DNA of 64,000 bases from Candidatus Forterrea multitransposorum CG_2015-17_Forterrea_25_41 (lineage in GTDB: Archaea > Iainarchaeota > Iainarchaeia > Iainarchaeales > CSSED10-239), in NCBI GenBank assembly GCA_009392915.1, contig CP045477.1, forward strand, positions 448,001 to 512,000, in the 5' to 3' direction. The position numbers were made by a program, and so were the translations under genes. The notes under the pieces are model-generated. The model did no database searches and was not told where the DNA came from. It saw only the letters and a list, made by a program, of their open reading frames with translations. Within the stretch, counting starts at the first letter, position 1; every line of letters starts with the position of its first letter. Positions 5,325-41,281 of this stretch are shown one piece after another.

Positions 5325-5327
5325 AAA

Positions 5328-8777: not shown

Positions 8778-8803
8778 TATACAAGTAATTAAAGTGACGA
8801 TAC

Positions 8804-8812: not shown

Positions 8813-8941
8813 CACTTTGGACAATATATATAACATAAAAATAATGTATTAATTCACTAAAAAACAAAAAAAGGTGTGTTAATACCTTATATACAAAAAA
8901 GAAGCTTAATTTAAGCTTATTTTAATAATGAGGTGGATTGG

Positions 8942-10054
8942 ATGAGATCAATTGTATCAAATGCAGTAGAGCACAAATCTGCAGCTGCTGAGAACATAAA
9001 CGTTAAAGACAGCGAATTTGCAGCCCCAAAGATCATGGTTATGGGAATTGGTGGTGCAGGAAATAATTCTGTAAATAGAATCTGTGCAATGGGTGTTGCA
9101 GGTGCACAACTTGTAGCTATTAACACAGATAGACAACACTTAGGTATCATTTCAGATGATATAACAAAATTATTAATTGGAAAATCAGTAACTAATGGTT
9201 TAGGTGCTGGTGCATACCCTGAAATAGGTGCAAAAGCAGCAGAAGTTTCAAAAGCAGCATTAGAAGAAATCTTAGATGGTGTTGACATGCTTTTCATTAC
9301 TGCCGGAATGGGTGGTGGAACAGGAACAGGTGCAGCTCCAGTAGTAGCTCAAATAGCAAAACAACAAGGTGCAATTGTAATGTGTATAGTAACTTATCCT
9401 TTCGCACTTGAAAGAGCACGTTTAATTAAAGCAGAAGAAGGAATTGACCTTTTAAAAGATATTTGTGACACAGTTGTTGTTATTGATAACAATAGACTTG
9501 TTGAATTAGTTCCAAACCTTCCAATGCAAGATGCTTTCAGAGTAGCTGATGAAGTAATTGCAAGAACAGTAAGAGGAATTACAGAAACAATTACTCAACC
9601 TTCATTAATCAACCTTGATTACGCAGACATAAGAACAGTAATGGGTGGTAAAGGATTATCAGTTATCGCTGTTGGTGAATCACAATCTGTTAACAAAGTT
9701 GAAGAAGTTGTTGAAGACACATTAAAGAATGCTCTTTTAGATGTTGATATAACTGGTGCAACAGGTTGTTTAATCCATATTACAGGTGGAACTGAATTAA
9801 CTTTAGGTGAAGCTAACGCTGTTGGTGAAATGTTAACTGACCAAACAGATTCAAATGCAGCTGTTATCTGGGGTGCAAGAATTGATCCTACTTTTGAGAA
9901 TAAAATAGAAGTAATTGCTATTTTCACAGGTGTAAAATCACCATTCATCAAAGGAAGTAAAATGTTTAGAGGAAAAGATTCACCACAAAGCTACAACGGA
10001 AGTGGCAAAGGTGGAAGATCTTACGATGACAACTATGGATTAGATGTTTTATAA
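8942..10054 (+). CDS. ftsZ: Cell division GTPase FtsZ
   Basis: Tubulin/FtsZ signatures GIGGAGNNSVNRI and GMGGGTGTGAAPVVA. I prefer the ATG at 8942, preceded by GAGGTG (8930-8935). The ORF-track start at 8933 is a GTG inside that SD. Confidence 0.95.
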   Translation: MRSIVSNAVEHKSAAAENINVKDSEFAAPKIMVMGIGGAGNNSVNRICAMGVAGAQLVAINTDRQHLGIISDDITKLLIGKSVTNGLGAGAYPEIGAKAAEVSKAALEEILDGVDMLFITAGMGGGTGTGAAPVVAQIAKQQGAIVMCIVTYPFALERARLIKAEEGIDLLKDICDTVVVIDNNRLVELVPNLPMQDAFRVADEVIARTVRGITETITQPSLINLDYADIRTVMGGKGLSVIAVGESQSVNKVEEVVEDTLKNALLDVDITGATGCLIHITGGTELTLGEANAVGEMLTDQTDSNAAVIWGARIDPTFENKIEVIAIFTGVKSPFIKGSKMFRGKDSPQSYNGSGKGGRSYDDNYGLDVL

Positions 10055-10090
10055 GTAAAACATCTTTTCCTTTTTTTCTTTTTTTTATTA
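10043..10090 (+). terminator. Hairpin plus oligo-T terminator after ftsZ
   Basis: Perfect 9-bp stem gatgtttta/taaaacatc (10043-10064) with loop taag, spanning the stop codon. It is followed by ttttcctttttttctttttttt. Confidence 0.4.
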
Positions 10091-10211
10091 TTTTTCTATT
10101 TCTTTAAAACACAACAATTTTTTATAAAAATACACTATTTTTATACATTTCTTTACACTATTATATTAGTACTTTTAACAAAAATTACAAAAAAAAGGAG
10201 TTTGAAAACAA

Positions 10212-12125: not shown

Positions 12126-12178
12126 TTTCTCTTTATTCTCTTTTCTTTTTTTTTCTTTCGTTTTACTTTTTTTTAAAA
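12111..12178 (+). terminator. Weak hairpin plus long T-tracts between convergent thrS and the DUF134 gene
   Basis: aaagaga/tctcttt 7-bp stem around the thrS stop, then a T-rich run (ttttctttttttttctttcgttttactttttttt). Confidence 0.3.
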
Positions 12179-12181
12179 AAA

Positions 12182-12481
12182 CTATTCTTCAAAATAATAA
12201 TTATTATCATCTTCAAGCTTTATAGCTTTTCCATTTACTAAAGCAGAAGAAATCTTTTTTCTAGCATCAATTAAAAGTCTATGAAAAGTAGGTTGAGAAA
12301 TATTCATTCTTTCAGCACATTCTTTTTGCTCTAAACCTAAAAAATCTTTAAGCCTAATAGCTTCAATTTCAACAAAGCTTAATACTTCTTCTTCAATTTC
12401 TCTTAAAGGTATTCCAGCTGGTTTAAAATAATTAGAGGATGGTTTATGTGAAATATTTCTCATTCTTCTTTTTCTTGGCAT
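12182..12481 (-). CDS. DUF134 (UPF0251) family DNA-binding protein
   Basis: N-terminus MPRKRRMRNISHKPSSNYFKPAGIP matches the MPRxxKxR...FKPxGIP DUF134 signature. The C-terminal half is sigma-70 region-4-like HTH (ECAERMNISQPTFHRLL). Confidence 0.8.
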   Translation of the reverse strand: MPRKRRMRNISHKPSSNYFKPAGIPLREIEEEVLSFVEIEAIRLKDFLGLEQKECAERMNISQPTFHRLLIDARKKISSALVNGKAIKLEDDNNYYFEE

Positions 12482-12500
12482 ATTTTAAAACCTTTTTTTC

Positions 12501-12836
12501 TTAATGTTTACAAGGAGTATTTAAATCTTTTAAATCAGCTATATTTTCAATTACTTCTTTTAAGAAATTATAATCTCCTGTTTTAAGAATAATATTTTTT
12601 TCTACAAATAAATCAATTGCTTTTTTACCCATACCTTTACTAAAAACTGTATCTATATTATTTTCTAAAATTTGATCTACTGGAGATTTAGAACTATTAT
12701 GATCTAAATAATTTTTAATAATTTTTAATTCTTTTAAAACTGTATCATATATTGCAAAAAAATTACAAGTTCCAAAATGATTGCTTAATTTTGAATCTAA
12801 ATTATTATTATCTTCTAATGAAATTAAAATTTTCAT
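12501..12836 (-). CDS. NifX/NifB-like (dinitrogenase FeMo-cofactor-binding fold) protein
   Basis: HFGTCNFFAIYD... and ...GMGKKAIDLF..KNI pattern typical of this family. I prefer the second ATG (MKILISL), which follows a GAGGAT SD. The ORF track starts at 12857. Confidence 0.7.
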   Translation of the reverse strand: MKILISLEDNNNLDSKLSNHFGTCNFFAIYDTVLKELKIIKNYLDHNSSKSPVDQILENNIDTVFSKGMGKKAIDLFVEKNIILKTGDYNFLKEVIENIADLKDLNTPCKH

Positions 12837-12923
12837 AAATAAATCCTCTAGTATCATTTAATATTTTTAAAATTAAATATTTAATGAATATATATAAATA
12901 TATAAAGAAAAGAAATAAAAGAA

Positions 12924-12943
12924 CTACTCTTTTTAAAGAGTAG
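12924..12943 (-). terminator. Perfect hairpin overlapping the DUF5320 stop codon
   Basis: ctactcttt-tt-aaagagtag: 9-bp inverted repeat with a very short loop. Possible attenuator or terminator, function unproven. Confidence 0.25.
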
Positions 12944-13067
12944 CTCTTCTTCTAAGACCCCTTCCTTTTGTTTGAGAAACACTTTCTCTTTCAGGATTGC
13001 ATCTTCCTCTTTTCATTCCAGTCATTGATCCTTTTCCATCAGGACCAGTTCCGTCTTTATTCGGCAT
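12933..13067 (-). CDS. DUF5320-like small protein (44 aa), missing from the ORF track
   Basis: Minus-strand ATG at 13065-13067, 8 nt after GGAGG. Translation MPNKDGTGPDGKGSMTGMKRGRCNPERESVSQTKGRGLRRRATL matches the MPxxDGTGPxGxGxMTGxxxGxC signature. It is first in a three-gene string with the NifX-like and DUF134 genes. Confidence 0.6.
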   Translation of the reverse strand: MPNKDGTGPDGKGSMTGMKRGRCNPERESVSQTKGRGLRRRATL

Positions 13068-13228
13068 ATTAAATTCCTCCTTTTCTTTTATGAATCTATA
13101 TTCATAATCATGTTACGAACAGTTTATAAAGCTATTGAATATATATTCATTTAAATAAAATACAAATATTTATAAAGATAATTAACAACATTAATTTATT
13201 AACAATAATAAATATAGGTGATATTAAT

Positions 13229-14158
13229 ATGGGATTATTTAAAAGAAAAACACCAGTTGTTCAAGAAAAAAAATCAGAATATGGACCAATTAACAGACTT
13301 GTAAGAAATGCTAAAGCAAAATCACAAGCAAAACAAAAAGCAAGAACACTAAAAGAAGTTGCAGAAATTAAATTTAATAAAATAAAAAGTGCTTTAAGAC
13401 TAAGACCTGCAAAAGTAAAAATAACTTATGAAGTTTTATCTAAAGAATATTCTTCTGCAGAAATTAAAAAAATAGATCAAAAACTTGCAATGCTTGAAAA
13501 AAGAGCAGAAGAAAGTCATAAAAGAATACTTGAACTTAAAGGTAAAACATTAAAAGATAATACAAATATCGAAGTTATTAATAGAAAAAAAATTGCACAA
13601 CAACTTCTTAAAGGAGAAGAAGTTAAAAGTATACCTAAAAGAAACGCAATTAATCCTGAAAGCTTAGAGGCAAATAAAGGAACAAAAGCATCTACTAAAA
13701 CCTTAAAAGAAATTGAAGCAGGAGATAAAAAAGTTTTAAAAACAAGAGAACTTGACAAACATTTTACTTCAGAAAAGAAAAGAGCAATGGTTTCAAAAGA
13801 AATAAGAAAAGAAATTGAGAATGCAAGATTAATAAATAAAGAAATTGCAAGTATTCAATCAATAAAATTTAATGACATTATAAAAAATCAACTAAAATCT
13901 TTTGGAACAATAGCAGAAACTAAACAAGCAAGAGAAGAAATTATTAAATCTCTTTACAATAAATATGAAAAAGGAGCAATTAATTTATCTGGTTTAAGAG
14001 ATTTAATTAAATATTTATCTGTTGAAGTTGAGATTGGTAAAAAAATGAATATTATAAATTCTGTTGAAAATGCAAACACTTATCTTTTAGGAAATGCTCA
14101 ACTTATAAATGAAATAAAAGATATTTCTGAAATAAAAAAGAAATTTAAGTTTTTTTAA
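13229..14158 (+). CDS. Lys/Glu-rich coiled-coil hypothetical protein
   Basis: 309-aa ORF with an AGGTGAT SD 7 nt upstream. Low-complexity helical composition, no family recognised. Confidence 0.55.
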   Translation: MGLFKRKTPVVQEKKSEYGPINRLVRNAKAKSQAKQKARTLKEVAEIKFNKIKSALRLRPAKVKITYEVLSKEYSSAEIKKIDQKLAMLEKRAEESHKRILELKGKTLKDNTNIEVINRKKIAQQLLKGEEVKSIPKRNAINPESLEANKGTKASTKTLKEIEAGDKKVLKTRELDKHFTSEKKRAMVSKEIRKEIENARLINKEIASIQSIKFNDIIKNQLKSFGTIAETKQAREEIIKSLYNKYEKGAINLSGLRDLIKYLSVEVEIGKKMNIINSVENANTYLLGNAQLINEIKDISEIKKKFKFF

Positions 14159-20805: not shown

Positions 20806-21510
20806 CTAAACTATATAACTAGATACAAAAAAGATTAAAAGACTTACTGGAAGTAAAAAACATAAATAAATCCAAACTTTCTTTGAATTACTATCAATCT
20901 GTGATAAATAAATTGAAGAAATTATAACATATTCAACTAAATATACAATTGCACAATAATAACTTACAATAAACAAACTAGAATTAGAAGTTAAACCAAC
21001 AACTGAAATATCAACAATTCCAGTTAAACTTTTAACCAAAGAAATTACAACCCCTAAAATCCCAGGAACAATAAAACCACCTGCAAAAAGAATAGTGTAT
21101 TTTTGCATTAAAAGAATTGAAGTTCTTTCATCAAACAATTCTCTTGATTTTAAAAAATCTTTAACTAAATTTTTATAATCTTTAGAAGTAACTGTTCCAG
21201 TAAAAACTGAATATTCTAAAAGATCTAAAAAATTTGAAAGAAAAGAAGAATTATATTTATTTTTTAAAATATTAAACACTTCTTTAGGGGTATGCCCTTT
21301 GTTTATTTTATTTAAAATTAATTTAAATTCAGAAGATATTAATTGATTACTGGAAGATGCAAGCTTTACTAAAATTACTTTTAGATCATTTGTTTTAACA
21401 AACCCAGAGATTCTTAAAACTTCATCAATTAAAGCATCTTCAAATTTCTTTCTCTTAATACTAAAAAAATAATCTCCAAATAAGTAATTTAAATACTTCA
21501 TTAATTTCAT
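20806..21510 (-). CDS. Type IV filament platform protein, TadC/FlaJ-half-like (locus A)
   Basis: Cytoplasmic helical T2SS-F-like domain followed by 3 TM helices. Sits directly downstream of a TadB-like gene and a secretion ATPase. Confidence 0.55.
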   Translation of the reverse strand: MKLMKYLNYLFGDYFFSIKRKKFEDALIDEVLRISGFVKTNDLKVILVKLASSSNQLISSEFKLILNKINKGHTPKEVFNILKNKYNSSFLSNFLDLLEYSVFTGTVTSKDYKNLVKDFLKSRELFDERTSILLMQKYTILFAGGFIVPGILGVVISLVKSLTGIVDISVVGLTSNSSLFIVSYYCAIVYLVEYVIISSIYLSQIDSNSKKVWIYLCFLLPVSLLIFFVSSYIV

Positions 21511-21533
21511 AATTAATTAACTCTCATTTTTAT

Positions 21534-22280
21534 TTATGGAAGATTAGCTTTCATTGTTAGGAATATAAACATATCAATTATTGGAAATAAAATAACAATT
21601 ATAAAAATAACAGATAAAGGTGTAAAAGATAATTCTAAAAAATTACTACCAACTAATAAAAACATTAAAAACAAAGCAGGAACAATTGCAGAAACAACAA
21701 TATAGATTAAAGATAAAAGACTTAATTTAGTGGAATAATTTTTAATTAAATAATTTTGTTTTTCAATAATACTTGAAGATAATGTTCTTAAAGATTCAGA
21801 TTTATTTAAAGAACCAGTAGATAAAACATCTTCAATCTGATAAAAAACTCTCTTTAAATCTGAGTTTTCAACACCCACAGAAATAAAAGATTCAGAAAGA
21901 GAATAACCTAAGACATTTACTTTATATAAAACTTTTTTAATAATTTGCCCAATTAAAGAAGAATCAACTCTATTTTCTAAAGCAATTTTTAAAGAAATAT
22001 TCTTATCTAAATCATTTGCAAGGTTATTTAAGAAAAAAGGAATTTCTTTATTTATTTGTCTTTGATGATTTTGAAGCTTAATCTTGTATTTAAAAAAAAT
22101 AATAAAAAAGAACATAAAGAAAAACATAATAAATAAATTAAATAAATAACTATAAGATAAACTAATAACCACTGAATCAATTAATAAAAAAATAATTAAA
22201 ATTATTAAATAGAGAATAATAAATAACAAAAAGTTCTTTCTTGTAAATATTTCTTTCTTTAAAAAAATATAATCAATCAT
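21534..22280 (-). CDS. Type IV filament platform protein, TadB/FlaJ-half-like (locus A)
   Basis: N-terminal TMs, a T2SS-F-like helical domain (EIPFFLNNLANDLDKNISLKIALE...GYSLSESF), and C-terminal TMs. Its start overlaps the ATPase gene by 8 nt. Confidence 0.6.
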   Translation of the reverse strand: MIDYIFLKKEIFTRKNFLLFIILYLIILIIFLLIDSVVISLSYSYLFNLFIMFFFMFFFIIFFKYKIKLQNHQRQINKEIPFFLNNLANDLDKNISLKIALENRVDSSLIGQIIKKVLYKVNVLGYSLSESFISVGVENSDLKRVFYQIEDVLSTGSLNKSESLRTLSSSIIEKQNYLIKNYSTKLSLLSLIYIVVSAIVPALFLMFLLVGSNFLELSFTPLSVIFIIVILFPIIDMFIFLTMKANLP

Positions 22281-24036
22281 AATCTTTTCTAATTAATATT
22301 TCATCAATTATTTTTTCTTGTTTCTTATAAACTTTAAGATAATCTTTTTTATTTTTAATATCAAATGCAAATTTTAATTTATCATAGATTTTAATAGAAT
22401 CATTAACTTTAATTAATTTATTTTTATAAATATCAAAATAAAATAAAACATTTAAAGAAATTTTTCCATCTTTATATATAACTTCACAGATTTCAGTAAT
22501 ATTTCTTAAATCAATAGATTTACCTTTTAAATATTTATTATATCTTCTTTGAGTTATAATTAAATCAATTACACCTAAATCAGTTTCTAAAACACCATAT
22601 GACTTAAACCTTAATAGAGCTTCATTAGCACTTTGAGAATGGAAAGTTGTATATGTACCTTTTGCTTGACCACAAAGCATAGATTCAATTAAATATTTTG
22701 ATTCTTCTCTACTTCTAATTTCTCCAATAACAACTCTATCAGGTCTCATTCTTAAAGTGTTTATAACTAAACTTTCAAGATTAATTCCAATCTCAGGATT
22801 TACAAGTGTAAAAACTTTATGTTTATGAGGGATATTTATCTCTCTAACTTCTTCAACAACAACAAATCTTTCATCTAAAGGAACAAAAGAAAGTAAAGTG
22901 TTTAAAGTGGTTGTTTTTCCAGAACCAGTATTTCCAACAACAATTATATTTGAATCTGTTAAAAAACAAAGACTTAAAAAAACTAAAGCTTCTTTTGAAA
23001 CTGTATTAAAAGAGATTAAATCTTTAATTGTAAATGGTTTTTGAGAAAATTTTCTAATAGTAATACAAGCACTTTCAGTTATTGGGTTTATAACTGCATT
23101 AAGTCTTGAATTATCTTTAAGATAAGTATCTAAAATTGGATTTTTTAAAGTAATATATTTATTTGAGTGCCAAGAAAGTTTATTAATTAAATCCCTTATT
23201 ACTTGAGAAGAAGAATAAGAAAGATTACTTTCAAGCCAACCATAATATTTATGATAAACATAAAGTGATTTTCCTTCTCCAATAATTACAATTTCTTCAA
23301 GATAAGGATCTTTTAATATTTCTGTTAATGGTCCATAATTATAAAGATTATTAAAAGAAATATCTATAATATAATTAAATTGATCTTCTTCAAGCTCTAT
23401 GTTATTAACATAACAATAATCAATTAATTCTTTTTCAATATCTTCTTTTATTCTTTCAGTTGAAACTTTTTCAATATATTCTGTTCTAGTTTTATAAGAA
23501 TCTAAAATAAAGTTAATAACTTCAATTTCTTGGATTGAAAGATTTTGATGAAAAATTAAATATCTTTTAGAAGAATCTTTCATTTCAAATACATTTTTAG
23601 AAATATTTCTTAAGATTTCTTTTTTTAAATCTAAAACAACATAACCTAAATATCTATTAAGAATATATTTCTTTTCATCATCAGTAAACTCATCCATTAT
23701 CTTTAATAAAGCAGGATTATTTTTATAACAAAACATAGAAAAAGAACTTAAAGCACATAAATCACATTTATAAGCTTTATTTTTTCTTAAGATAATAGCA
23801 TTATGTGGACAAGCTTTAAGACACTCACCACACCCATCACATTTTTCAGAATCAATTGCTACAACGCCTTTAGAAACATAATAAATAGCATTTTTTTTAC
23901 AAGCTTTAATACAAGGAGCATCTTTACAATTGGTACAATTGAATACACAAGAAGAGTCTTTTTTTGTAAAATTGTAAGGACAATTTAGAAAAACATCTGT
24001 ATCTTTGATAAAATCTTCTGTTTTCTTAAGATACAT
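22273..24036 (-). CDS. FlaI/VirB11-type secretion ATPase with an N-terminal 2x[4Fe-4S] ferredoxin-like domain (locus A)
   Basis: Cys motifs CTNCKDAPCIKAC and CDGCGECLKACP (residues ~34-77). Intact Walker A VVGNTGSGKTTT (nt 22909-22938), Walker B-like RPDRVVIGEIRSREE, and His-box ..TTFHSQSA. Confidence 0.85.
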   Translation of the reverse strand: MYLKKTEDFIKDTDVFLNCPYNFTKKDSSCVFNCTNCKDAPCIKACKKNAIYYVSKGVVAIDSEKCDGCGECLKACPHNAIILRKNKAYKCDLCALSSFSMFCYKNNPALLKIMDEFTDDEKKYILNRYLGYVVLDLKKEILRNISKNVFEMKDSSKRYLIFHQNLSIQEIEVINFILDSYKTRTEYIEKVSTERIKEDIEKELIDYCYVNNIELEEDQFNYIIDISFNNLYNYGPLTEILKDPYLEEIVIIGEGKSLYVYHKYYGWLESNLSYSSSQVIRDLINKLSWHSNKYITLKNPILDTYLKDNSRLNAVINPITESACITIRKFSQKPFTIKDLISFNTVSKEALVFLSLCFLTDSNIIVVGNTGSGKTTTLNTLLSFVPLDERFVVVEEVREINIPHKHKVFTLVNPEIGINLESLVINTLRMRPDRVVIGEIRSREESKYLIESMLCGQAKGTYTTFHSQSANEALLRFKSYGVLETDLGVIDLIITQRRYNKYLKGKSIDLRNITEICEVIYKDGKISLNVLFYFDIYKNKLIKVNDSIKIYDKLKFAFDIKNKKDYLKVYKKQEKIIDEILIRKDYD

Positions 24037-31290: not shown

Positions 31291-33081
31291 TCATCCATAA
31301 GTAGTTGCTTTAATACTTTTAACTACACCACTTACAAGAACCCAGCCACCCCATTGACCAGTATTTCTGGATGAATTGGTTACAGATAAAGTCCAACCAG
31401 GTTCACTGTCACCAACTTCCCAATATTTACATTTTTTAGAAGAACCAAAAGCTTCTACTTTAATATTATAATTACCAGCAGGAACTTTCCAAGATCCATC
31501 TTTATCAGTTGCAAGTTGTGAACCACCATATTTAAGATATAAACCATCATTTCCATAATCATTAGTTATTGAACAAACATATGAAGCACTTGTTGAAGAA
31601 TAATTAAAAGTGAGACCTGCTTGAGAAGTATCATTTTCAGAAGCTAAACTAACTACTCCTTCTAAAACTAAATTACCTTGTGTACTTAAACCCTGGTAAA
31701 AGAAACCTGCAGAAGACCAAAATTCATTTAATTTAACACCACCACCTGAGAACGCAGGCTGAGCTACAACTGTACCACCTGATTGCGACCAACCAGACAA
31801 ACTAGTAATACTAGTTTGATTTAATAAAACTACAGCAGGAGCTGATAGAACAAGATTAATACTTGAACTTGTTGCTGTTCTTGAAGCACCATCTGTTACA
31901 GTTACTCTAATATATTTTGTACCAGTAGTTGAAAATGAATAAGTTGGATTTGAAACTGAAGTTCCAAAAACAATCCAAGTACTTTGATTTGTACTATATT
32001 CCCAGGAATAATTAGATACTCCAGAAACTGCATTACTTACAGAAGAATTAAAACTTATTGTTTGACCAGTATCATAATTTGTACCAGTTGTTGGAGAAGT
32101 AACACTTACAGCTAAAGGATCACTAATTAAAATATTACTAACAGTATCAGAATAAACTTGATTAATAGGAGAAGGTCTTGAAGCATCTGTAACTAAAACT
32201 CTAAACTCATAAGTCCCACCTGTTGCAAAACCATTTGTTGTAGTATAACTATTAGAACCAAAGTTAGTCCAACCAGTACTGTTTCTATTATACTGCCATT
32301 GATAAGATTTAGTACCAATTGCATTTGAAACACCTACATCAAATATTATTCCTTCACTAAGATTATAAACATCACTTGCATCAGGAGTATAAATAGTTGC
32401 TGTTAATGGAAGAACAACTGTAAAATCTTCACTTGAAGTTGAAATATCTCCAGTTCCAGAATCTGTTACTTTATAATAAATAGTATAGCTTCCTGTTGAA
32501 GATAAAGTTTGAGATAAAGAAGCACAATTAGTACCAACTGCAGTATTAGTATCATTTGAGTTTAATATCCATTCACAAGAAACTGTTGAAACATTATTAT
32601 CATAATTTCCAGTAAATGAAATTGTTTCATTATTATTCCAAGTAGTTCTTGACATTGTAATACTTGAAGATAACAAATCTAAAATATTTATTCCAATTGT
32701 TTGAGAATCACTTGAAGAATCAAAATCATCTAAAGTATCTAATTTAATTGAATAATCATTAAATACTGAAAAAGAATAACTTGTATTACAATCAGTACTA
32801 AAAGATGTAAATGATGGTAAGTCAGCTCTCTTATGACTCCAATTACAAGTTACATTTCCAACATTATTACTATATGAAGAATTAAAATTAATTGTTTTTG
32901 TAACATTATAATTTGATTCTTCTGTTGGATTTAATATTGTTGATGAAAAATCATCAAAAATTTCAACAAATAAATCATCACTAAAAGTTCCTTCATCATC
33001 ATTTGCAATTACTAAAATTTCATAAATTCCAGGAGTTGTAAAAGTATAAGAAATATCACACAAGGTATCTGAAGGATTCAT
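31291..33081 (-). CDS. PKD-like-repeat plus lectin/jelly-roll-like surface protein; likely the distal part of a pilin-adhesin gene interrupted by an in-frame TAA
   Basis: Repeats share the pattern [ST]VSCEW.../...Y.F...G.Y.I.V.V.D..G and are Ser/Thr/Asn/Gly-rich. There is no signal peptide, and the annotated Met lies inside a repeat. The frame stays open for 46 more codons upstream, to the stop of ORF 33220-33744. Confidence 0.7.
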   Translation of the reverse strand: MNPSDTLCDISYTFTTPGIYEILVIANDDEGTFSDDLFVEIFDDFSSTILNPTEESNYNVTKTINFNSSYSNNVGNVTCNWSHKRADLPSFTSFSTDCNTSYSFSVFNDYSIKLDTLDDFDSSSDSQTIGINILDLLSSSITMSRTTWNNNETISFTGNYDNNVSTVSCEWILNSNDTNTAVGTNCASLSQTLSSTGSYTIYYKVTDSGTGDISTSSEDFTVVLPLTATIYTPDASDVYNLSEGIIFDVGVSNAIGTKSYQWQYNRNSTGWTNFGSNSYTTTNGFATGGTYEFRVLVTDASRPSPINQVYSDTVSNILISDPLAVSVTSPTTGTNYDTGQTISFNSSVSNAVSGVSNYSWEYSTNQSTWIVFGTSVSNPTYSFSTTGTKYIRVTVTDGASRTATSSSINLVLSAPAVVLLNQTSITSLSGWSQSGGTVVAQPAFSGGGVKLNEFWSSAGFFYQGLSTQGNLVLEGVVSLASENDTSQAGLTFNYSSTSASYVCSITNDYGNDGLYLKYGGSQLATDKDGSWKVPAGNYNIKVEAFGSSKKCKYWEVGDSEPGWTLSVTNSSRNTGQWGGWVLVSGVVKSIKATTYG

Positions 33082-33219: not shown

Positions 33220-33744
33220 TTAAGAAGATGGAAGTTCTACAGCACATTTTCTTAAATCAATTGTTTTTTTAGGACAAGTAGAGTTTGATAAAGTAAAAAC
33301 CTTTAAATCTAAAGGATCAATTATTTCTCCAGAATCAACATTAATATCAGAATTTACAATTGTAAAATCAGTTGTTGATTTTAATTTTTTAATTTCTCCA
33401 GATAAAATAGGATTATCAAAATTACCATACATTTTTAGAACATTTGAAGAATTTTGAGAAGTTCCTTGAATATTTAAAGAAAGATTATAAAAATCAATAG
33501 GGGTTGGGTTTCTTAATAAAACTTCAATATTTCCAGTAGTTGAATCAAGATTACAAGATTCTACAACTAAATTATACTTAATACAATCCATTCTAGAAAC
33601 TTCTTGTAATTGATCTTGTGAAACATCTAATTTTTCTCTAACAGATGTTTTTGACCAAGATAAAAATCCTGCAACTAAAACAGCTGTTACCAAGATTAAT
33701 AAAACTACAGAAATTATTGCCGAAATTGATTTTTTTCTATTCAT
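33220..33744 (-). CDS. Archaeal type IV pilin-like protein (class III signal peptide)
   Basis: N-terminus MNRKKSISAIISVVLLILVTAVLVAGFLSW fits the archaeal pilin N-terminal domain: basic residues, a small residue at -1, then a hydrophobic helix. It ends at a TAA in frame with the next ORF. Confidence 0.7.
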   Translation of the reverse strand: MNRKKSISAIISVVLLILVTAVLVAGFLSWSKTSVREKLDVSQDQLQEVSRMDCIKYNLVVESCNLDSTTGNIEVLLRNPTPIDFYNLSLNIQGTSQNSSNVLKMYGNFDNPILSGEIKKLKSTTDFTIVNSDINVDSGEIIDPLDLKVFTLSNSTCPKKTIDLRKCAVELPSS

Positions 33745-33830: not shown

Positions 33831-34172
33831 TTAAAAAGAAATAATATCATTTATTTTTATAAAAGAAATATCTGTTTCAATTGGAAGTTCAATTATATAT
33901 TTAGCTTTCTTTTTTGGAGAATAAAAAGTAAAAGGTCTTAATCTTTTTTTAATATCAATAACTTTTTTATTTGAATCTAGAAAAAGAACATTTATTGAAT
34001 AGAAAACAAAAAGCATATGAATTGAAGAGCCTACAATAGATTCATATTCTCTTTTAAAAATAAGACCAAAATCAAATTTCTTTCTTGGAAAAAACATAAG
34101 TCCAAGTCCTTGTTTTAAAGGAGAAATTATTTTCTTTTTTTTAATTATTATTTTATTATTAACTTTTATCAA
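33831..34172 (-). CDS. DUF192 (COG1430) family protein
   Basis: GLGLMF...IHMLFVFYSINVLFLDSNKKVIDIKK...AKYIIELP follows the DUF192 GLM/...M...LD..F.d/...vLE pattern. Confidence 0.65.
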   Translation of the reverse strand: MIKVNNKIIIKKKKIISPLKQGLGLMFFPRKKFDFGLIFKREYESIVGSSIHMLFVFYSINVLFLDSNKKVIDIKKRLRPFTFYSPKKKAKYIIELPIETDISFIKINDIISF

Positions 34173-34178: not shown

Positions 34179-35330
34179 TCACACTTTTTTTTTTAAACTT
34201 ACCCTATATAAAATAACAAAATCAATATCAGATTTTCTAATCTCAAAATCAAAAAATACAGCATCTGGTACAAAAATAGCATACTCTGCACAAGAAAGAC
34301 CACATTCACTTTGATCAAAAGGTAAAAAATATAGATTATTACTATATGTTTTATCTAGAATATATTTAGAACTAATAGATTTTAAAGCAATGACTTCAGA
34401 AATATTTACTTGTTCTAGCTGATTACGATTCATATAGGTAATAGTGTCAATTAAAACACTCTCAGCATCTGGTTTTGGAACAGCAATTTGAAAGATTAAA
34501 ATTGTAAATATAAAAAATATGAAAATATATTTGATAAAATTAAAACTACTTTCTTCTTTTATTGCAAACATTATAAAAGAAATAAAGATAGAAAGAACAA
34601 TTGCCATATAAAGAAGGAAATTATCAAAAAATATTCTTGTTATTAAATCTTGATCTGCATACCATAAAAAATTATTACCTAGTATAATATTTATGAATAA
34701 AATTACAACTAAAAAGATTACAAATAAAACAATGGATAAATAATATAAATTTAAAAAATATTTTTTCTTTTGTGTTTCTTCTTTAAAAATAGAAATATCT
34801 TTTGAAATATTTAAAAGAACTCTATCAAGAGGTATAGAACTTTCTTTAAAAGTCTTTAACAATATTAAAGTGTGAGTGATTATTGGACTTTTAATAGTCT
34901 CATTAATACCTGATAAAGCATTTTCAAAATCATCTCCCCAAGAAACTCTATTTGCTATTCTTTTTATTTCTGTATCAATTGAACCATAAACATTTGATGT
35001 TGTGATATTGTTTAATGATATTGATAAATTATTTGTAGATTTATACTCTCTCGATAAATCTTGTAAAAAGAATGTAAAAGAAGTTTCAATTGCTTTCTTT
35101 TTAAAGTGTTTTAAAACATATTCTAAAACAAAACCTAAAAAACTTACGAAAAAACCAAAAAAGAAAACTGCATAGTATAATTCAGTATGAAGAAAATATT
35201 TATTTGATAAATGAACAATTAAAAGACCAGATAAAATACTTGCAAGAATTAATATTTGGTATTCATAATTATAAATTAATAGTTTTAATTTAATATTCAT
35301 TTTATCTAAAAATTTATTTTTTTCTATCAT
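34179..35330 (-). CDS. Type IV filament platform protein, TadC/FlaJ-half-like with an extra C-terminal domain (locus B)
   Basis: N-terminal TMs, a T2SS-F-like helical domain (..IKRIANRVSWGDDFENALSGINETIKSP..), 3 TMs, then a ~90-aa extracytoplasmic tail. Confidence 0.6.
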   Translation of the reverse strand: MIEKNKFLDKMNIKLKLLIYNYEYQILILASILSGLLIVHLSNKYFLHTELYYAVFFFGFFVSFLGFVLEYVLKHFKKKAIETSFTFFLQDLSREYKSTNNLSISLNNITTSNVYGSIDTEIKRIANRVSWGDDFENALSGINETIKSPIITHTLILLKTFKESSIPLDRVLLNISKDISIFKEETQKKKYFLNLYYLSIVLFVIFLVVILFINIILGNNFLWYADQDLITRIFFDNFLLYMAIVLSIFISFIMFAIKEESSFNFIKYIFIFFIFTILIFQIAVPKPDAESVLIDTITYMNRNQLEQVNISEVIALKSISSKYILDKTYSNNLYFLPFDQSECGLSCAEYAIFVPDAVFFDFEIRKSDIDFVILYRVSLKKKV

Positions 35331-35346: not shown

Positions 35347-36189
35347 TCATTTATATAAAATCCCAATTAATACAAATTCAATTACTGCAAATATTATTGA
35401 AAAAATCAACAATGATTCTTTTAATAAAAAATAATCTGTAAAAGTTATAAAAAATATTATTAAAATAACAATAAAAAAGAAAAATAAAAATATTGACATT
35501 AAAAATAAAATATTAATTCTACTTTTCTTTTGTTCACTTAACTCTCTTTTAGATTGTTCTAAATTAGTTAAGAAATCAAGAATAACTTGATTTAAGTCTT
35601 CTTTTTGATCAATAACTTCAATTAATTTTCTAAAGAAGTTTTTTTCAACTTCAGAATATGTTTCAGAAATTATTGATTTAAAAGTATCTTTAAGATTATG
35701 ATTTCTTTTATTTAAAGCAATTATTTTCTTTGCTTCTCTGCTTAATATATCATTATTTTCTAAGTTTTCAAAAACATTCAATACATCTTTAATAGTTAGA
35801 TTTTCATCTCTTAAAACAGATAAATGTTTTATAGATCTTTGAAATTCACTACCAATTTCTTTTTTTATATTATTTAAAATAAAAAAAGGATATTTAAATA
35901 AAAGTAAAAAAATCATAAAAGCAAAAGTAAAAGAAATAAAAATAGTTATAAAAAAACTAAAAAGATTAAACAATATTCCAAGTCTAATCATTAAATAAAT
36001 AAAAGCAAACTCTATAACTATTAAAAAAAATATAGAAATAAAAGAAATATTTGAAATATAACTAATAGAATCTTCATTGATACCAGTATATTCTAAAACT
36101 CTATCAAAATTTTTAAAAGTACCTTTAAATTGCATAACAATATCTTTTAAGAAAAATAAAGATATACTTGTTAAGAATTTACTAAACAT
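35347..36189 (-). CDS. Type IV filament platform protein, TadB/FlaJ-half-like (locus B)
   Basis: TMs flank a helical cytoplasmic domain (..IKHLSVLRDENLTIKDVLNVFENL..). The gap to the upstream ATPase-like gene is 7 nt. Confidence 0.6.
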   Translation of the reverse strand: MFSKFLTSISLFFLKDIVMQFKGTFKNFDRVLEYTGINEDSISYISNISFISIFFLIVIEFAFIYLMIRLGILFNLFSFFITIFISFTFAFMIFLLLFKYPFFILNNIKKEIGSEFQRSIKHLSVLRDENLTIKDVLNVFENLENNDILSREAKKIIALNKRNHNLKDTFKSIISETYSEVEKNFFRKLIEVIDQKEDLNQVILDFLTNLEQSKRELSEQKKSRINILFLMSIFLFFFFIVILIIFFITFTDYFLLKESLLIFSIIFAVIEFVLIGILYK

Positions 36190-36196: not shown

Positions 36197-39100
36197 TCAC
36201 TTTATATCGAGTCTTTTAAACAACTCGTCCTTTTCATAATTATATTGAGAGATAATACTATTAAAATCTTTGTAATTGTATACTTTTGAATCCTTCATCC
36301 ATCTCATAAGTTTCTTTTTCTTTAAAAAATCAACAACATTTATTGAAGAAGATAAAAGATTAATATTGTATTTATTTTCGGATATTTCTAAATCTACAAC
36401 TACACTTTCATTTTTATTAATTATTTCTTTAATATTTACAATTTGATAAGTTTCTTTAAAACCTTGTTTAATTCTTTTAATTTCTATTAGAATAGATTTT
36501 TGATTAACCATTTTTAATTGTTCAATAAATTTATCAGCAACATTTGGTTTTATTGAAAAGATATTTAAGTTATACCAAGAAACATCAAAAATATCTTCTC
36601 CAAACTCATCAATTGCAATAATATCTGGTTTCTGAGAAATTGTTTGTTCAATAATTAAACGTTTACTTAAATCTGCATTATTTGTAAAAATTCTATTAAT
36701 CCATTCTTTTTGAGGAAGTTTAAATCTATCGTATGCCTGAACAGTTATAATTTTCTGATCAGGATAAAATAAAAGTATAGAATTATAAATTACAAAAGAA
36801 TCATCAACATCATGTAAAATAACTTTATAGTTTTCTGAAATTGCAGACCAGATATATGAAAATACATCTACAGAACCAATAGATGTATTAACTAAAGCAA
36901 CAGGTGTTAATGGTTCATCAAGATATTTTTTAATTACAAAAGAAGAACCTTTACTACTAGTATCTCCTAAAGAATAAAGACCTTCAACTTTATAACCATT
37001 AGGTAAATATCCATCAATCACAGGATGTTCTGGAGTTATATAGATACCCATATTTTTAGTTAAAATAGTTACAAAGTTATTTAACTCAATAATATCTTTA
37101 AAACTAATATTTGTTTTTAAAACACCATACTCTACATGGTAAACTATAAGATTTGATTTTTCACCAGAACAACTAACTTCAATTATTTTTTTATCAAGTA
37201 AAAGATTAGTTAAAATACCTAACCCAAAAAATTCTCTTTGAATAAATTTAAGATAAAGTTTTTGTTGTAATTTACCTAAACTATAAGATAATTTTTCAAC
37301 AGAAATATCAAATATTTTTTGAATATATTTATCAAGACTATGTTTATCTCCATTAAAAGAATAATAGTTTTTATCGATTGTATTAAAAAATACTTTTTTT
37401 AATTGAATATATTCTTTTTCTTGTTCACTATTAAGTTCTGGTTGTACTAAATTATAGAAAAGACCTTTAGTATTATCATAATGTATTGTAACATATGTAA
37501 AATCATCTATAGAATATTTATCAAAAATATTTTTTATATTTTCTTCAAATGAAGCAATAGGATCTTGATACACTAAAGAAGAAAATAGAGAATTGTCAGA
37601 AGATAATTTTTCTTGATATATTTCTTTATTTATTTTAACAGGATTTTTTCCAGCATCTTTTGGAAGGATATAATCCATACCTTTTTCTCTTAAGTCTTTA
37701 AATTTTTCTGCAATTAAATCATTTTTAACTTTCGGAGTTAATTTTACTTCTTTGATAATTTTAATTTCTTGTTCTTTTGGTAATGATTCTTTTTTAATTG
37801 TTTTAGATATTTTTTCATCATCATTATCTTCATCAGAATAATTCTCTTTTGAAGTAACTTTTTCTTCTCTTATAGAAGGAGAAATATATTTTTTATTTTT
37901 GTTTGAAATTTTAGATTTATCTTTTTTATTTTTAGGAGAAGAAATTTCTCTCATACCTTTATATATTCTTTCATCATCTTCTTTAGATAAATCAACATCA
38001 GAAAATACTTTTTTAACATCTTCTTCATCTTTATCTATTTTCTCATTTAAAACATTAACATCAAATTTTTCTTTTTCTTTTTCTTCTAAAGTTTTTGATT
38101 TTTTTAATTTAGAAATATTATTTTCAATTTCAGAATTTAATTTTACTTGATTATTATCAATTACAAAATTTGGTGTTTTTTCAGAAGATTCATTTGTTTT
38201 AATTTCAGAAGATAAAGAAGAATCTTCATTTAAAACTTTTAAATCATTTTTTGAATCTTTATCATATACAGAAAACTTATCTTCAACAGTGTTAGATAAA
38301 TCTTTAACATCATCTTCAATTGCAAAAATATCTGGAACTTCAATTTCTTCAAATAAACCATTAGCCTCACCTAAAGAAGAATTATTTAAATGAGAACTAG
38401 AATTTTTAGAATCTATTTCTAAATTACCTGTGTTTTTAGGAAAATCATTTGAATTTGCTAAAGTTTCTTTATTTTGAGAATCTTTATTTTTATTTACAGA
38501 TAAATGATCTATTTTTGAATATAAATTTTTAACATCATACTTTGGAAAATCAATTTTACTTTTTTTAGGTTTATCATCTAAAAAAGAAAATGATTCTAAA
38601 TAAACTTCTTGATCAAGTTTACTTGCTTTTTTATTTAATTGATCTAATAAATCATCTACATTTTCATTTTTTGATTTTACTTCTGAAAAAATATCATTTG
38701 ATTCTTTACTTTCAGAATATTCTTTTGGTTTAGATACATTTTCTAAAATATCTTTCAAAAGAGACATGGTTTTTTTATTATTATTTGATTCATCAAAATT
38801 TATTTCTTTTTTAATTGAATTATCAATATGATCTATTTTAGGCTCACTTATTAAAAATGAATTTGAAGGTTTTATTTTTTTTTCAGAAGATGAATCCGAA
38901 AGTAGTAGTTCATGAGATGAATCAGGGAGTAATAATTCATTATTAATTTTTGATGAAATTAATTTATTAGATGTTGATTTTTTATCAACTTTATCTAAAG
39001 GAACTTCTTTTTTAAAAATATTAGAATTATCAACCTTATCTAAAGGAACTTCTTTTTTAGAAATATTAGAATTATCAACTTTATCTAAAGGAACTTCTTT

Positions 39101-39547
39101 TTTAGAAATATTAGAATTATCAACTTTATCTAAAGGAACTTCTTTTTTAGAAATATTAGAATTATCAACTTTATCTAAAGGAACTTCTTTTTTAGAAATA
39201 TCTAAATTATCAACTTTATCTAAAAGAATCTTTTTTTTTCTAAAAGGATTAAAATCTTTATATTTTTCTTCAATATCAGAAGTGTCAACTTTTAAGTTTA
39301 CTTTCTTAACATCATTATAATTTTTATTTAAAGAAAAATCATCTTTTTTAGTTTCTGGTAAAACTACATCAAATTTTTGTAATTTTTTAGAATTACTATT
39401 ATTTTTTAAAGAACTATCAATTTTATCTTCTTTTAAAGAACTATCAAATTTATTATTTTTTACAGAATCTGAAGCTTTAGATATAGATTTAGATAGAGGA
39501 ATTCTTTTAATAACCTTAAAACCAGAAAAATTATCCTCTCCACCCAT
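36197..39547 (-). CDS. FlaI/ArlI-like secretion-ATPase homologue without a Walker A P-loop, fused to a ~700-aa low-complexity repeat-bearing N-terminus
   Basis: The C-terminal ~400 aa align collinearly with the locus A ATPase and the FlaI pattern (GLGILTNLLLDKKIIEVSCSG...VYHVEYGVLKTNISF...SSFVIKKYLDEPLTPV...). GxxGSGKT is replaced by ILHDVDDSFVI (nt 36788-36814). A Walker-B-like PDIIAIDEFGED is retained. Confidence 0.8.
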   Translation of the reverse strand: MGGEDNFSGFKVIKRIPLSKSISKASDSVKNNKFDSSLKEDKIDSSLKNNSNSKKLQKFDVVLPETKKDDFSLNKNYNDVKKVNLKVDTSDIEEKYKDFNPFRKKKILLDKVDNLDISKKEVPLDKVDNSNISKKEVPLDKVDNSNISKKEVPLDKVDNSNISKKEVPLDKVDNSNIFKKEVPLDKVDKKSTSNKLISSKINNELLLPDSSHELLLSDSSSEKKIKPSNSFLISEPKIDHIDNSIKKEINFDESNNNKKTMSLLKDILENVSKPKEYSESKESNDIFSEVKSKNENVDDLLDQLNKKASKLDQEVYLESFSFLDDKPKKSKIDFPKYDVKNLYSKIDHLSVNKNKDSQNKETLANSNDFPKNTGNLEIDSKNSSSHLNNSSLGEANGLFEEIEVPDIFAIEDDVKDLSNTVEDKFSVYDKDSKNDLKVLNEDSSLSSEIKTNESSEKTPNFVIDNNQVKLNSEIENNISKLKKSKTLEEKEKEKFDVNVLNEKIDKDEEDVKKVFSDVDLSKEDDERIYKGMREISSPKNKKDKSKISNKNKKYISPSIREEKVTSKENYSDEDNDDEKISKTIKKESLPKEQEIKIIKEVKLTPKVKNDLIAEKFKDLREKGMDYILPKDAGKNPVKINKEIYQEKLSSDNSLFSSLVYQDPIASFEENIKNIFDKYSIDDFTYVTIHYDNTKGLFYNLVQPELNSEQEKEYIQLKKVFFNTIDKNYYSFNGDKHSLDKYIQKIFDISVEKLSYSLGKLQQKLYLKFIQREFFGLGILTNLLLDKKIIEVSCSGEKSNLIVYHVEYGVLKTNISFKDIIELNNFVTILTKNMGIYITPEHPVIDGYLPNGYKVEGLYSLGDTSSKGSSFVIKKYLDEPLTPVALVNTSIGSVDVFSYIWSAISENYKVILHDVDDSFVIYNSILLFYPDQKIITVQAYDRFKLPQKEWINRIFTNNADLSKRLIIEQTISQKPDIIAIDEFGEDIFDVSWYNLNIFSIKPNVADKFIEQLKMVNQKSILIEIKRIKQGFKETYQIVNIKEIINKNESVVVDLEISENKYNINLLSSSINVVDFLKKKKLMRWMKDSKVYNYKDFNSIISQYNYEKDELFKRLDIK
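38986..39228 (-). repeat. Near-perfect 45-bp tandem repeat (~5.4 copies) inside the ATPase-like gene
   Basis: Unit caactttatctaaaggaacttcttttttagaaatattagaattat starts at 38986, 39031, 39076, 39121 and 39166, with a partial copy at 39211. It encodes (DNSNISKKEVPLDKV)n in frame. Confidence 0.92.
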
Positions 39548-39630: not shown

Positions 39631-40362
39631 TCAAATAACAAAAGAAATAATTTTTGGAATAATTTCAAAAACATATAAAAGAATTAGAAAGATATAACTT
39701 ACTAGGATTAATATAATAAATGGAATTAAAGGAGAAAACCACACCTTAGAAATATTATGATTTTTAGCAATAACTTTAATTTTTTTAATTTCATTTTCTG
39801 GTTCAATATTTGGCATAAAAACAATTTTTGAAATTAATTTATTATTTTCTACATACAATTTTTCTAAAGGAGTATAAAAATTATTTACTTTTTTTAAAGA
39901 TAAAGGAACCCCTAAAAACATTAGATATAATGATTTAAAAAAATTATATTTAGGAAAATTTCTTGAAAATAAATTATATAAAAATAAGAAAACAGGTATA
40001 AGTAAAGTTAAAACTAAAGCAAAAAAGAAAATAAACATTGGAAAATATATATCAAAAATATTTGTAAATGATATTGCAAAAATAGTATAAAGATCCCCTT
40101 CTCCTATATATGTAAAATAACTAATCTTTCCTAAAACATAAAAAATTAATAAAAATATAAAACTTACAGCAAGTTGTATTAAATAACCTTTCCATAAAAT
40201 AAAATCTGTTTTAAAAACAAAAATACCTAAATAAAGAATACTAAAGATGGCTAAGAAAAATAAAGACATTATATTTATTTCTCTATACTTAATATCTTGA
40301 TAAGTTACATACAATAAAATAATTATAGAAAAAATAATTATTGGTAAATAAATATAATCCAT
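39631..40362 (-). CDS. Archaeal prepilin/preflagellin peptidase (A24 family, FlaK/PibD/EppA-like)
   Basis: Polytopic membrane protein with two catalytic-Asp contexts at canonical spacing: YQDIKYREI (Asp23) and YIGEGDLY (GxGD, Asp~89). Confidence 0.8.
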   Translation of the reverse strand: MDYIYLPIIIFSIIILLYVTYQDIKYREINIMSLFFLAIFSILYLGIFVFKTDFILWKGYLIQLAVSFIFLLIFYVLGKISYFTYIGEGDLYTIFAISFTNIFDIYFPMFIFFFALVLTLLIPVFLFLYNLFSRNFPKYNFFKSLYLMFLGVPLSLKKVNNFYTPLEKLYVENNKLISKIVFMPNIEPENEIKKIKVIAKNHNISKVWFSPLIPFIILILVSYIFLILLYVFEIIPKIISFVI

Positions 40363-40369: not shown

Positions 40370-41281
40370 CTATATTGATCTTTTTGTAAGATACATTAAA
40401 TCTTTATAAGCTTTAACTTTTGTTTTTCTTGCAGTTGATCTTTCAAAAAGATTATCAGTATAATTTCCAGGAGGTCCTACTGATTTAATTTTTTTATTTT
40501 TAATTTTATTTAAAAGAATCTTATTCTTTAAATTATCATCATCTTTATCAAAAAAAGAAGTATTTAGATCAATTGTTAAAATACCACTACCAATCTCAGA
40601 AACATTATAACTTCCAGAACCAGCTGTAATATAGTTTGACATTTTACCAAGCTTAATTGCTGCTTCAAATTTATAAACAACATCATAACTTTTTTGATCA
40701 ATTTTATGAGTTAAATATTCACTAAAACTTGAAAGTCCTAAAGTCTTAAAAAACCTATGAAGCTCTAAATAATCTAAAATATGTCTTAATTTTCTTAAGA
40801 AAAAAGAATCATGCATATAATAAGATAAATACCCAATTGTTCCAGTATATGCTTCAACACCAATTTTTTTTTCTTTAATAATTTTTTCTAATTTATCAAG
40901 TCCTAAAATATAAGTTGCAGAATTTGATATAAGTCCAAAAGGATGTGCAATTGTTATTAAATATCTTTTTTTATAACAAAAATCAATTAATCTTTTAAGA
41001 GAAACTTTATCTTCATAAAGTATAGAATAATTATAAATACTAGCATCTTCAGAAAAAACTAAAACTTCTCCAGAATCAGTTAATATTTTAATACCTGGAA
41101 TTAATAATTTATCTTTTGGTTTAAATTTTAAAAGTTCAAAATATGCTTTTCTAGGATCTAAATAATTATATTCAGTTATAGCTGTACCTAAAAGATTATT
41201 TTCAGAAACTACTTTCCAATATTTTTTTGCAGACTCTTTATTTTTAAAAAGATGAGTATGCATGTCAATATTATATAACAT
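40370..41281 (-). CDS. PHP-domain metal-dependent phosphoesterase
   Basis: N-terminal IDMHTHLF motif and later His-containing motifs (IAHPFG). Confidence 0.6.
   Translation of the reverse strand: MLYNIDMHTHLFKNKESAKKYWKVVSENNLLGTAITEYNYLDPRKAYFELLKFKPKDKLLIPGIKILTDSGEVLVFSEDASIYNYSILYEDKVSLKRLIDFCYKKRYLITIAHPFGLISNSATYILGLDKLEKIIKEKKIGVEAYTGTIGYLSYYMHDSFFLRKLRHILDYLELHRFFKTLGLSSFSEYLTHKIDQKSYDVVYKFEAAIKLGKMSNYITAGSGSYNVSEIGSGILTIDLNTSFFDKDDDNLKNKILLNKIKNKKIKSVGPPGNYTDNLFERSTARKTKVKAYKDLMYLTKRSI

Follow-up and report, generated by a model that had tools for sequence, protein, structure and literature searches.

A conserved pseudo-ATPase of type IV filament motor ancestry in the Iainarchaeia

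A 64,000-nucleotide stretch of the Candidatus Forterrea multitransposorum genome (contig CP045477.1, positions 448,001 to 512,000; hereafter the window) carries on its minus strand, at nucleotides (nt) 36197-39547, a gene that is well supported as a lineage-specific pseudo-ATPase derived from a type IV filament motor and carried by a lineage of the Iainarchaeia (Diapherotrites, DPANN). Its product keeps the fold of the GspE/FlaI-type secretion ATPases and has lost the four catalytic motifs of its RecA-like domain, and it probably has a structural or regulatory, non-catalytic function in the pilus machine. The gene fills the ATPase slot of a Tad/Epd-like 'System 1' pilus module, and we are highly confident both that it is a pseudo-ATPase under selection and that it belongs to this module. 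On the prevailing view, a type IV filament machine cannot do without a hexameric ATPase that works, together with a platform protein, pilins and a prepilin peptidase. An ATPase-slot protein that lacks ATP motifs and is nevertheless constrained like ribosome-biogenesis genes represents a natural separation of the structural and catalytic roles of the ring, and provides a handle on the non-hydrolytic ones, such as platform gating, filament locking and partner recruitment. Host contact in DPANN archaea is, moreover, believed to rely on appendages of the cell surface, which makes an unusual pilus base in this uncultured class relevant to the way these cells attach.

The core retains the fold of a secretion ATPase

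The gene is one open reading frame (ORF) of 1116 amino acids (aa), intact as a preliminary description of the window had stated; it starts with ATG, and the identical sequence is found on 26 public contigs. The window is strongly AT-rich, with a GC content of 0.20-0.32. The last ~445 aa of the protein form its core, which is composed of a GspE/FlaI-type N-terminal domain, a RecA-like domain and archaeal C-terminal helices, and which follows a long N-terminal extension (Table 1). The full protein had no Pfam match, T2SSE did not match its C-terminal 502 aa even at E<=10, and the NCBIfam FlaI model gave 108 bits against a cut-off of 550. Because Pfam is silent, homology was demonstrated by phmmer searches of Protein Data Bank (PDB) sequences and by a fold search. 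The phmmer search gave the C-terminal part E=1.1e-30 with GspE of A. fulgidus (2OAP), E=5e-22 with FlaI of S. acidocaldarius (4II7; 4II7/4IHQ about 1e-21) and about 5e-5 with CpaF. The same part had been described as collinear with the intact ATPase of a second locus in the window, locus A (22273-24036), and this homology was recovered by BLASTP (E=2e-13, 23% identity, 212 aa).

An AlphaFold2 model of aa 625-1116, for which 14 family sequences served as input, reached a predicted local distance difference test score (pLDDT) of 79 and a predicted template modelling score (pTM) of 0.71. Foldseek aligned this core model with 2OAP at a template modelling (TM) score of 0.72 (E=8e-30, 497 columns) and with FlaI at TM up to 0.67, and CpaF, VirB11 and PilT scored lower. 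By this comparison the pseudo-ATPase has the two-domain fold of the secretion ATPases, N2D plus a RecA-like C-terminal domain. The label FlaI/ArlI-like used in the preliminary description is loose, the nearest proteins being of the AfGspE/PilB3 type and archaellum genes being absent from the operon. Databases name the protein 'hypothetical protein' (NCBI), 'type II/IV secretion system ATPase subunit' or 'FlaI'; 'hypothetical' and 'ATPase' are both misleading labels for it. The most highly conserved block of the whole protein, GYKVEGLYSLGDTSSKGSSFVIKKY (nt 36923-36997), lies in the N-terminal domain of the core, and its conservation is compatible with a retained inter-domain or inter-subunit interface.

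The nucleotide motifs are lost throughout the family

In the phmmer alignments, the GETASGKTT of solved ATPases stands opposite HDVDDSFVI, exactly the replacement of Walker A given in the preliminary description. Neither the window protein nor its family carries a GxxxxGK[ST] elsewhere in the domain: strict and relaxed Walker A patterns are absent from all 1116 aa, and G....GK[ST] is absent from every family member (35 database sequences; 50 including locus translations). The next tier of homologues, beyond the family, nearly all have GGTASGKT-type loops. At the Walker A position the loop of the pseudo-ATPase falls 2-3 aa short of P-loop length, and in the full-length model only about 4 residues connect the strand (E908-913) to the helix (H918-925).

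To define what became of each motif, we tabulated the corresponding residues in 50 family sequences and in the 10 nearest active relatives. At Walker A, the Gly-Lys pair is deleted in 50/50 family sequences, whereas GxxxxGK[ST] is kept in 10/10 active relatives. The shortened loop contains Asp in 42 of the 50, and acidic residues thus stand at the phosphate-binding position of the family. The loss extends further than the preliminary description had recognized, as the Asp box and the His box are gone as well. Within the Asp box, which reads IEDTxE in active relatives, Glu is replaced by Gln in all 50 family sequences and a new Asp is present in 49 (IQ[SA][YF]D), while the original Asp has become Ser, Ala, Pro or Thr in 47 and is retained as Asp or Glu in three; the window protein reads VQAYDR. 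The His of the His box, kept in 10/10 active relatives, falls inside a 7-residue deletion and is absent from 50/50 family sequences.

Walker B is altered in a different manner. The Gly of the active GE(V/I)RG is Asp or Glu in 50/50 family sequences and a Phe is invariant (D-x-F), while the position of the former catalytic Glu is variable (N17/E16/T4/Q3/D3... of 50). The window copy reads IAIDEF (hhhhDE) here. The Walker-B-like segment reported earlier as kept is therefore found in this copy, but the family does not conserve it as a catalytic feature. The old active site has been re-fixed with new invariant residues (Gln, Asp and Phe) rather than randomly eroded. Lastly, a change from IRKF to IKKY in the N-terminal domain was considered as a lost arginine finger; we make no such claim, since at least one family member, P0033, keeps the Arg.

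A clade-restricted family under purifying selection

When the C-terminal part was searched against 5.8 billion proteins, 24 close relatives were recovered at 40-73% identity, and intact T2SSE ATPases came next, at 23-28%. Full-length close relatives span 757-879 aa, and no precomputed Pfam domain is listed for any of them. The core profile, run against 1.84 billion cluster representatives, returned 16 representatives (50% clustering) above 600 bits, followed by a sharp drop to 277 bits. A scan of GTDB species genomes yielded 18 loci, and those with a taxon in their title are named Candidatus Iainarchaeum, 'ainarchaeum' or Diapherotrites (DPANN). Core identity is about 53% within the family, about 26% between the family and active relatives, and about 44% among the active relatives, which represent several DPANN lineages. 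Such identities would fit rapid change along the stem of the clade, with constraint afterwards.

Selection on the gene was estimated as the ratio of nonsynonymous to synonymous substitution rates (dN/dS) by the Nei-Gojobori method (NG86). The closest relative, at locus L004, has a 98% identical core and an unsaturated dS of 0.19. Against it, dN/dS is 0.040 for the core, 0.025 for the dead RecA-like domain and 0.40 for the N-terminal extension; against L005 the values are 0.14 for the core and about 0.9 for the extension. Comparisons with L007-L009 were not relied on, being saturated or badly aligned in the extension. In the same comparisons, neighbouring genes range over 0.04-0.23, and against L004 they give 0.077 for beta-CASP, 0.134 for NMD3 and 0.052 for platform protein 1 (the PHP-like gene gives 0.042), so that the core is at or below beta-CASP, NMD3 and the platform genes. 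Because its orthologues have no P-loop and the dN/dS of the core is low, the gene is a conserved pseudo-ATPase and not a product of decay. The preliminary description had argued against simple decay from the intact frame, and neither of the two outcomes that it named as refuting its reading was observed: no functional GxxxxGK[ST] stands elsewhere in the protein, and the orthologues lack an intact P-loop while this copy shows no relaxation of selection. The seeming split of the L004 orthologue into two ORFs coincides with a 100-N scaffold gap (5155-5255, 9122-9222), not with a frameshift.

One lineage, that of P0022 (loci L001, L002 and L019), keeps the gene between the peptidase and DUF192 genes of the operon described below, and the adjacent pair of T2SSF platform genes is missing. 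No signal of relaxed constraint was seen in this lineage, which has 3 private substitutions at otherwise invariant columns versus 0-12 in others. P0044 (L027 8001-10475; 231 bits) is a much more distant relative without a P-loop, about 28% identical both to the family and to active relatives, and its locus has the arrangement peptidase-X-T2SSF-T2SSF in a different neighbourhood. P0044 may be either an early family member or an independent inactivation. When platform protein 2 was used to look for a sister system that has an active ATPase at the equivalent position, none was found, and only relatives at >=46% identity came back.

The N-terminal extension

The extension had been put at ~700 aa and comes to about 620-670 aa, while its characterization as rich in Lys, Asp, Ser and Asn and as disordered holds, with the addition that conserved islands lie inside it. 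Its composition is K 18%, S 13%, D 11% and N 10%, and it is Glu-rich as well. Most of it is predicted to be disordered (AlphaFold2 pLDDT about 30 over aa 1-295 and 515-649), and it is hypervariable outside four islands of conservation (Table 1, islands A to D). Orthologues have shorter extensions, of about 300-650 aa. Island A is predicted to form a helix (H297-311) and a beta-hairpin (E316-321, E328-333) at pLDDT 56-71, and island C a beta-hairpin followed by a helix at pLDDT 74-85. Part of the extension is built from tandem 45-nt repeats. Strain variants within the same 90% cluster are 1116, 1101, 1086 and 1071 aa long, corresponding to 5, 4, 3 and 2 copies of the repeat, always in frame, and one strain combines the same core motif segments with quite different repeats in the extension.

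A conserved pilus operon surrounds the gene

Reading along the minus strand, the operon consists of the PHP-like gene, the class III prepilin peptidase, the pseudo-ATPase, two single-domain T2SSF platform genes and DUF192, separated by 7, 83, 7, 16 and 6 nt, respectively. BLASTP mapping onto 21 related loci found the same order in 16/18 species. The A24 peptidase adjoins the pseudo-ATPase gene in every related locus that reaches that far, and the PHP-like gene, whose product has no Pfam match and no PDB sequence match, is syntenic directly upstream of the peptidase in 14+ related loci. DUF192 directly follows the position of the second platform gene in 17/18 species-level loci and in 4/4 metagenomic loci. 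The platform pair and the pseudo-ATPase are restricted to the clade to the same degree. Further downstream lies a pilin-like ORF with the N-terminus MNRKKSIS followed by a hydrophobic stretch; it has a weak UpsA match (0.052) and no significant Pfam or NCBIfam match, and homologous pilin-like N-termini occur downstream in L005, L009, L010, L015 and L020. Archaellin, ArlH (KaiC-like), ArlX and ArlCDE are all absent from the pseudo-ATPase operon.

An ATPase-T2SSF-T2SSF layout is also seen around the nearest active relatives, among them a Diapherotrites protein whose GATATGKT loop is intact, and these relatives show faint PilB3_N/PilB3_C matches. In the locus of one active relative, L023 (7001-12588), an ATPase and two T2SSF genes are followed by a second T2SSE ATPase, and modules with two ATPases thus exist among related DPANN-type systems.

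Table 1. Coordinates in the window of the pseudo-ATPase, its parts and the genes around it.
Feature	Position (nt)	Strand	Basis or remark
N-terminal extension, aa 1-672	37532..39547	(-)	composition, AlphaFold2, dN/dS
45-nt tandem repeat, 5.7 copies, KKEVPLDKVDNSNIS units	38982..39239	(-)	Tandem Repeats Finder score 463
Island A, aa 299-350, DLLDQLNKK...FSFLDDKPK...LYSKIDHL	38498..38653	(-)	conservation profile
Island B, aa 398-416, LFEEIEVPDIFAIEDDVKD	38300..38356	(-)	orthologue alignment
Island C, aa 458-495, PNFVIDNNQVKLNSEIENNI...	38063..38176	(-)	moderate conservation
Island D, aa 623-633, GMDYILPKDAG	37649..37681	(-)	P and D invariant in alignment
GspE/FlaI-type N-terminal domain of core, aa 673-880	36908..37531	(-)	phmmer, Foldseek, conservation; dN/dS 0.047
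RecA-like C-terminal domain of core, aa 881-1116, four catalytic motifs gone	36200..36907	(-)	dN/dS 0.025
Degenerate Walker A position HDVDDSFVI, aa 912-920	36788-36814	(-)	phmmer and family alignment
Asp-box equivalent ITVQAYDRF	36722..36748	(-)	motif table
Walker-B-like PDIIAIDEFGED	36593..36628	(-)	motif table
His-box region SWYNLNIFSIKP	36545..36580	(-)	motif table
PHP-like metallohydrolase, MLYNIDMHTH...	40370..41281	(-)	weak NCBIfam CehA/McbA match, 1.1e-3
Class III signal (prepilin) peptidase, A24	39631..40362	(-)	Pfam Arc_PepC_II 5.8e-10 and Peptidase_A24
Platform protein 1, single T2SSF domain, TadB/TadC-like	35347..36189	(-)	Pfam T2SSF 2.1e-9
Platform protein 2, single T2SSF domain	34179..35330	(-)	Pfam T2SSF 2e-8
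DUF192 (COG1430) protein, conserved last core gene	33831..34172	(-)	Pfam DUF192 2.9e-9
Pilin-like ORF, 174 aa, MNRKKSIS/AIISVVLLILVTAVLVAGF..., class III signal-peptide-like N-terminus	33220..33744	(-)	sequence reading
PKD-domain surface-type protein, possible adhesin	31291..33081	(-)	Pfam PKD_4 1.6e-9; syntenic in L004, L005
Locus A: ATPase 22273-24036, T2SSF 21534-22280, T2SSF 20806-21510	20806..24036	(-)	Pfam, motif scan

Locus A encodes a ferredoxin-fused ATPase with intact motifs

The ATPase of locus A, 12 kb from the pseudo-ATPase, has all its motifs intact (GNTGSGKT, VEEVRE, VVIGEIRS and TFHS). It carries an N-terminal 2x[4Fe-4S] ferredoxin domain, and two T2SSF genes and a gene for a VTT/DedA protein lie downstream. 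The protein also scores strongly on the TadA and VirB11 models. The family of such ferredoxin-fused ATPases (Fer4-ATPases) comprises more than 100 clusters from metagenome-assembled genomes of Iainarchaeum, Diapherotrites and Micrarchaeota and is far larger than the pseudo-ATPase family. Since the Fer4-ATPase is widespread without the pseudo-ATPase, it does not depend on it. An intact Fer4-ATPase is present in all relatives where co-occurrence could be checked (3 genomes). In L011, the two loci are contiguous (4173-13475), in the order peptidase, pseudo-ATPase, two T2SSF genes, DUF192, Fer4-ATPase and two further T2SSF genes, and in another species both loci lie on the 57.6-kb contig JAQVTI010000004.1. 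A 2026 survey of archaeal type IV filaments (bioRxiv 10.64898/2026.04.22.720090) mentions neither ferredoxin nor 4Fe-4S, and its sole Fe-S mention concerns a separate Aap accessory protein.

Proposed role and alternatives

Overall, the explanation that we somewhat favour is that a dead GspE/FlaI/PilB3-type motor has been kept in a lineage of the Iainarchaeia as a scaffold or lock, with energy provided elsewhere. In hexamers of PilB, GspE, FlaI and CpaF, the N-terminal domain packs on the RecA-like domain of the next subunit and the ring engages the platform protein. From this architecture we infer that the pseudo-ATPase would still form a ring and dock on its cognate platform pair. At the pilus base the ring would serve as a scaffold or lock that needs no nucleotide, and the disordered N-terminal arm would recruit partner proteins through its four conserved islands. 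Pilin insertion, the ATP-driven step, would fall to a different ATPase, for which the co-occurring ferredoxin-fused protein of locus A is the most plausible candidate. The scaffold or lock mechanism with locus A specifically as its source of energy is a tentative proposal, to which we give somewhat less than an even chance.

A bolder form of the proposal, which we regard as speculative and rather unlikely, is a two-module type IV filament machine in which a permanently nucleotide-free ring sits on one platform pair, and an Fe-S-fused, possibly redox-gated motor on the second pair is the only one that works. The ring would then be a true stator or lock derived from a motor, its phosphate site filled by acidic residues and its hypervariable arm recruiting partners. 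If true, this would be the first type IV filament machine with a cognate motor subunit that is structurally essential yet catalytically inert.

Several points weigh against a scaffold or lock that is powered from elsewhere. Co-occurrence with the Fer4-ATPase could be checked in 3 genomes only, and the Fer4-ATPase is far more widespread than the pseudo-ATPase. The genome may encode other ATPases beyond the 64-kb window. Ring formation, platform binding and the absence of nucleotide binding are all argued from homology, and the new invariant polar and acidic residues of the pocket could mean a new ligand-binding function. Additionally, the P0022 lineage, without an adjacent platform pair, suggests that the role may not strictly need those genes.

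An exchange of PilB and PilT takes place at the base of type IV pili, and by analogy the dead ring could serve as a brake or placeholder: it would take the place of the ferredoxin-fused motor on a platform, either its own or the locus A one, block extension or spontaneous retraction, and be swapped for the motor on assembly. The dead and active loci are linked, lying next to each other in L011 and sharing a contig both in the window and in JAQVTI010000004.1; this linkage is in line with such an exchange, as are the retention of the pseudo-ATPase without its own platform pair in the P0022 lineage and the strong conservation of the pseudo-ATPase domain. However, the dedicated platform pair that begins 7 nt downstream in 16/18 loci is equally clade-restricted and points to a dedicated complex, not to competition for another platform, and we consider a brake unlikely.

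We give a still lower probability to a mixed hexamer, in which the pseudo-ATPase would be the non-catalytic partner of the locus A ATPase in the manner of the alpha and beta subunits of F1-ATPase. Both genes occur in the same genomes, their products share an overall fold, and other RecA-like hexamers provide precedent. Nevertheless, the two proteins are only 23% identical, over 212 aa, and belong to different subfamilies, one of the AfGspE/PilB3 type and the other scoring also on TadA and VirB11 models. Each ATPase has a separate platform pair, and the Fer4-ATPase family is widely found without the pseudo-ATPase, which is thus not needed for its assembly. Of the three roles put forward in the preliminary description, namely scaffold, mixed hexamer and stator, the mixed hexamer looks the least likely.

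Recruitment outside pilus assembly is similarly improbable. By this account, the remodelled pocket or the extension would bind a new ligand or substrate, and only the old genomic address would remain. In its favour, Gln, Asp and Phe have newly become invariant in what was the active site, the extension has conserved islands, one lineage lacks adjacent platform genes, and the PHP-like and DUF192 genes are conserved in the operon. Yet the gene is tightly coupled with peptidase, platform and pilin-like genes in nearly all species, and the same module surrounds the distant P0044 in a different neighbourhood.

It is very improbable that the protein is still an ATPase with a non-canonical nucleotide site. 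The window copy does have the Walker-B-like hhhhDE, and the protein is most conserved in the block of its N-terminal domain that is turned towards the nucleotide in active relatives. Against this, the protein has no strict or relaxed P-loop and a modelled loop of about 4 residues in its place, the Asp-box and His-box residues are lost, the Walker-B Glu is unconserved, and acidic residues occupy the phosphate site. Finally, a decaying pseudogene or an assembly or annotation artefact, which the lack of a Pfam match, the low-complexity repeats and the NCBI name 'hypothetical protein' might suggest, is refuted by the occurrence of the intact ORF across 18 species and dozens of independent assemblies, by a dN/dS of 0.04 and by repeat-number variants that are always in frame.

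Relation to known systems

The closest known proteins are AfGspE (2OAP), the best match in both sequence and structure, with which both domains and the archaeal C-terminal helices are shared, and pilus ATPases of the Haloferax PilB3 type. The pseudo-ATPase differs from them in its four lost nucleotide motifs, its long disordered extension, a core identity of about 26% to active relatives and the lack of a T2SSE match. It also shares its fold and significant similarity with FlaI/ArlI (4II7/4IHQ), but lies far below the equivalog cut-off, has no archaellum genes and a platform split into two genes, and has lost the catalytic motifs. Neither FlaI/ArlI nor ATPase is an appropriate classification for the pseudo-ATPase.

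Non-catalytic paralogues with an NTPase fold serve assembly, regulation or scaffolding rather than turnover. The F1/V1 alpha/B subunits, ArlH, TadZ/CpaE and GspL, which use an NTPase fold in these ways, may therefore offer a functional analogy for the pseudo-ATPase. They are from different families and, in several cases, retain nucleotide binding, whereas the pseudo-ATPase is a member of the motor family itself without a P-loop.

With System 1/Epd-like pili and bacterial Tad (TadA/CpaF, TadB + TadC), the operon shares an ATPase-slot gene followed by two single-domain platform genes, a dedicated class III peptidase and pilin-like genes. In those systems the slot holds a functional ATPase, while here it holds the pseudo-ATPase and the intact ATPase is 12 kb off in locus A. 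System 1 with two platform genes has been reported in DPANN, and in the same survey the core ATPase domains of archaeal type IV filament machineries retain functional motifs (Sivabalasarma & Albers 2026, bioRxiv 10.64898/2026.04.22.720090). No description of a conserved pseudo-ATPase of the GspE/FlaI family was found in the literature searched, and the 2016 census of archaeal type IV pili is silent on inactivated ATPases.

Other relatives with altered P-loops

Degenerate P-loops were also seen in other archaeal relatives, P0101 (GTGRTS) and P0113 (SGKHL). In P0157, the sequence appears to be interrupted directly after GSGK by a Cys-started insert that is intein-like in look.

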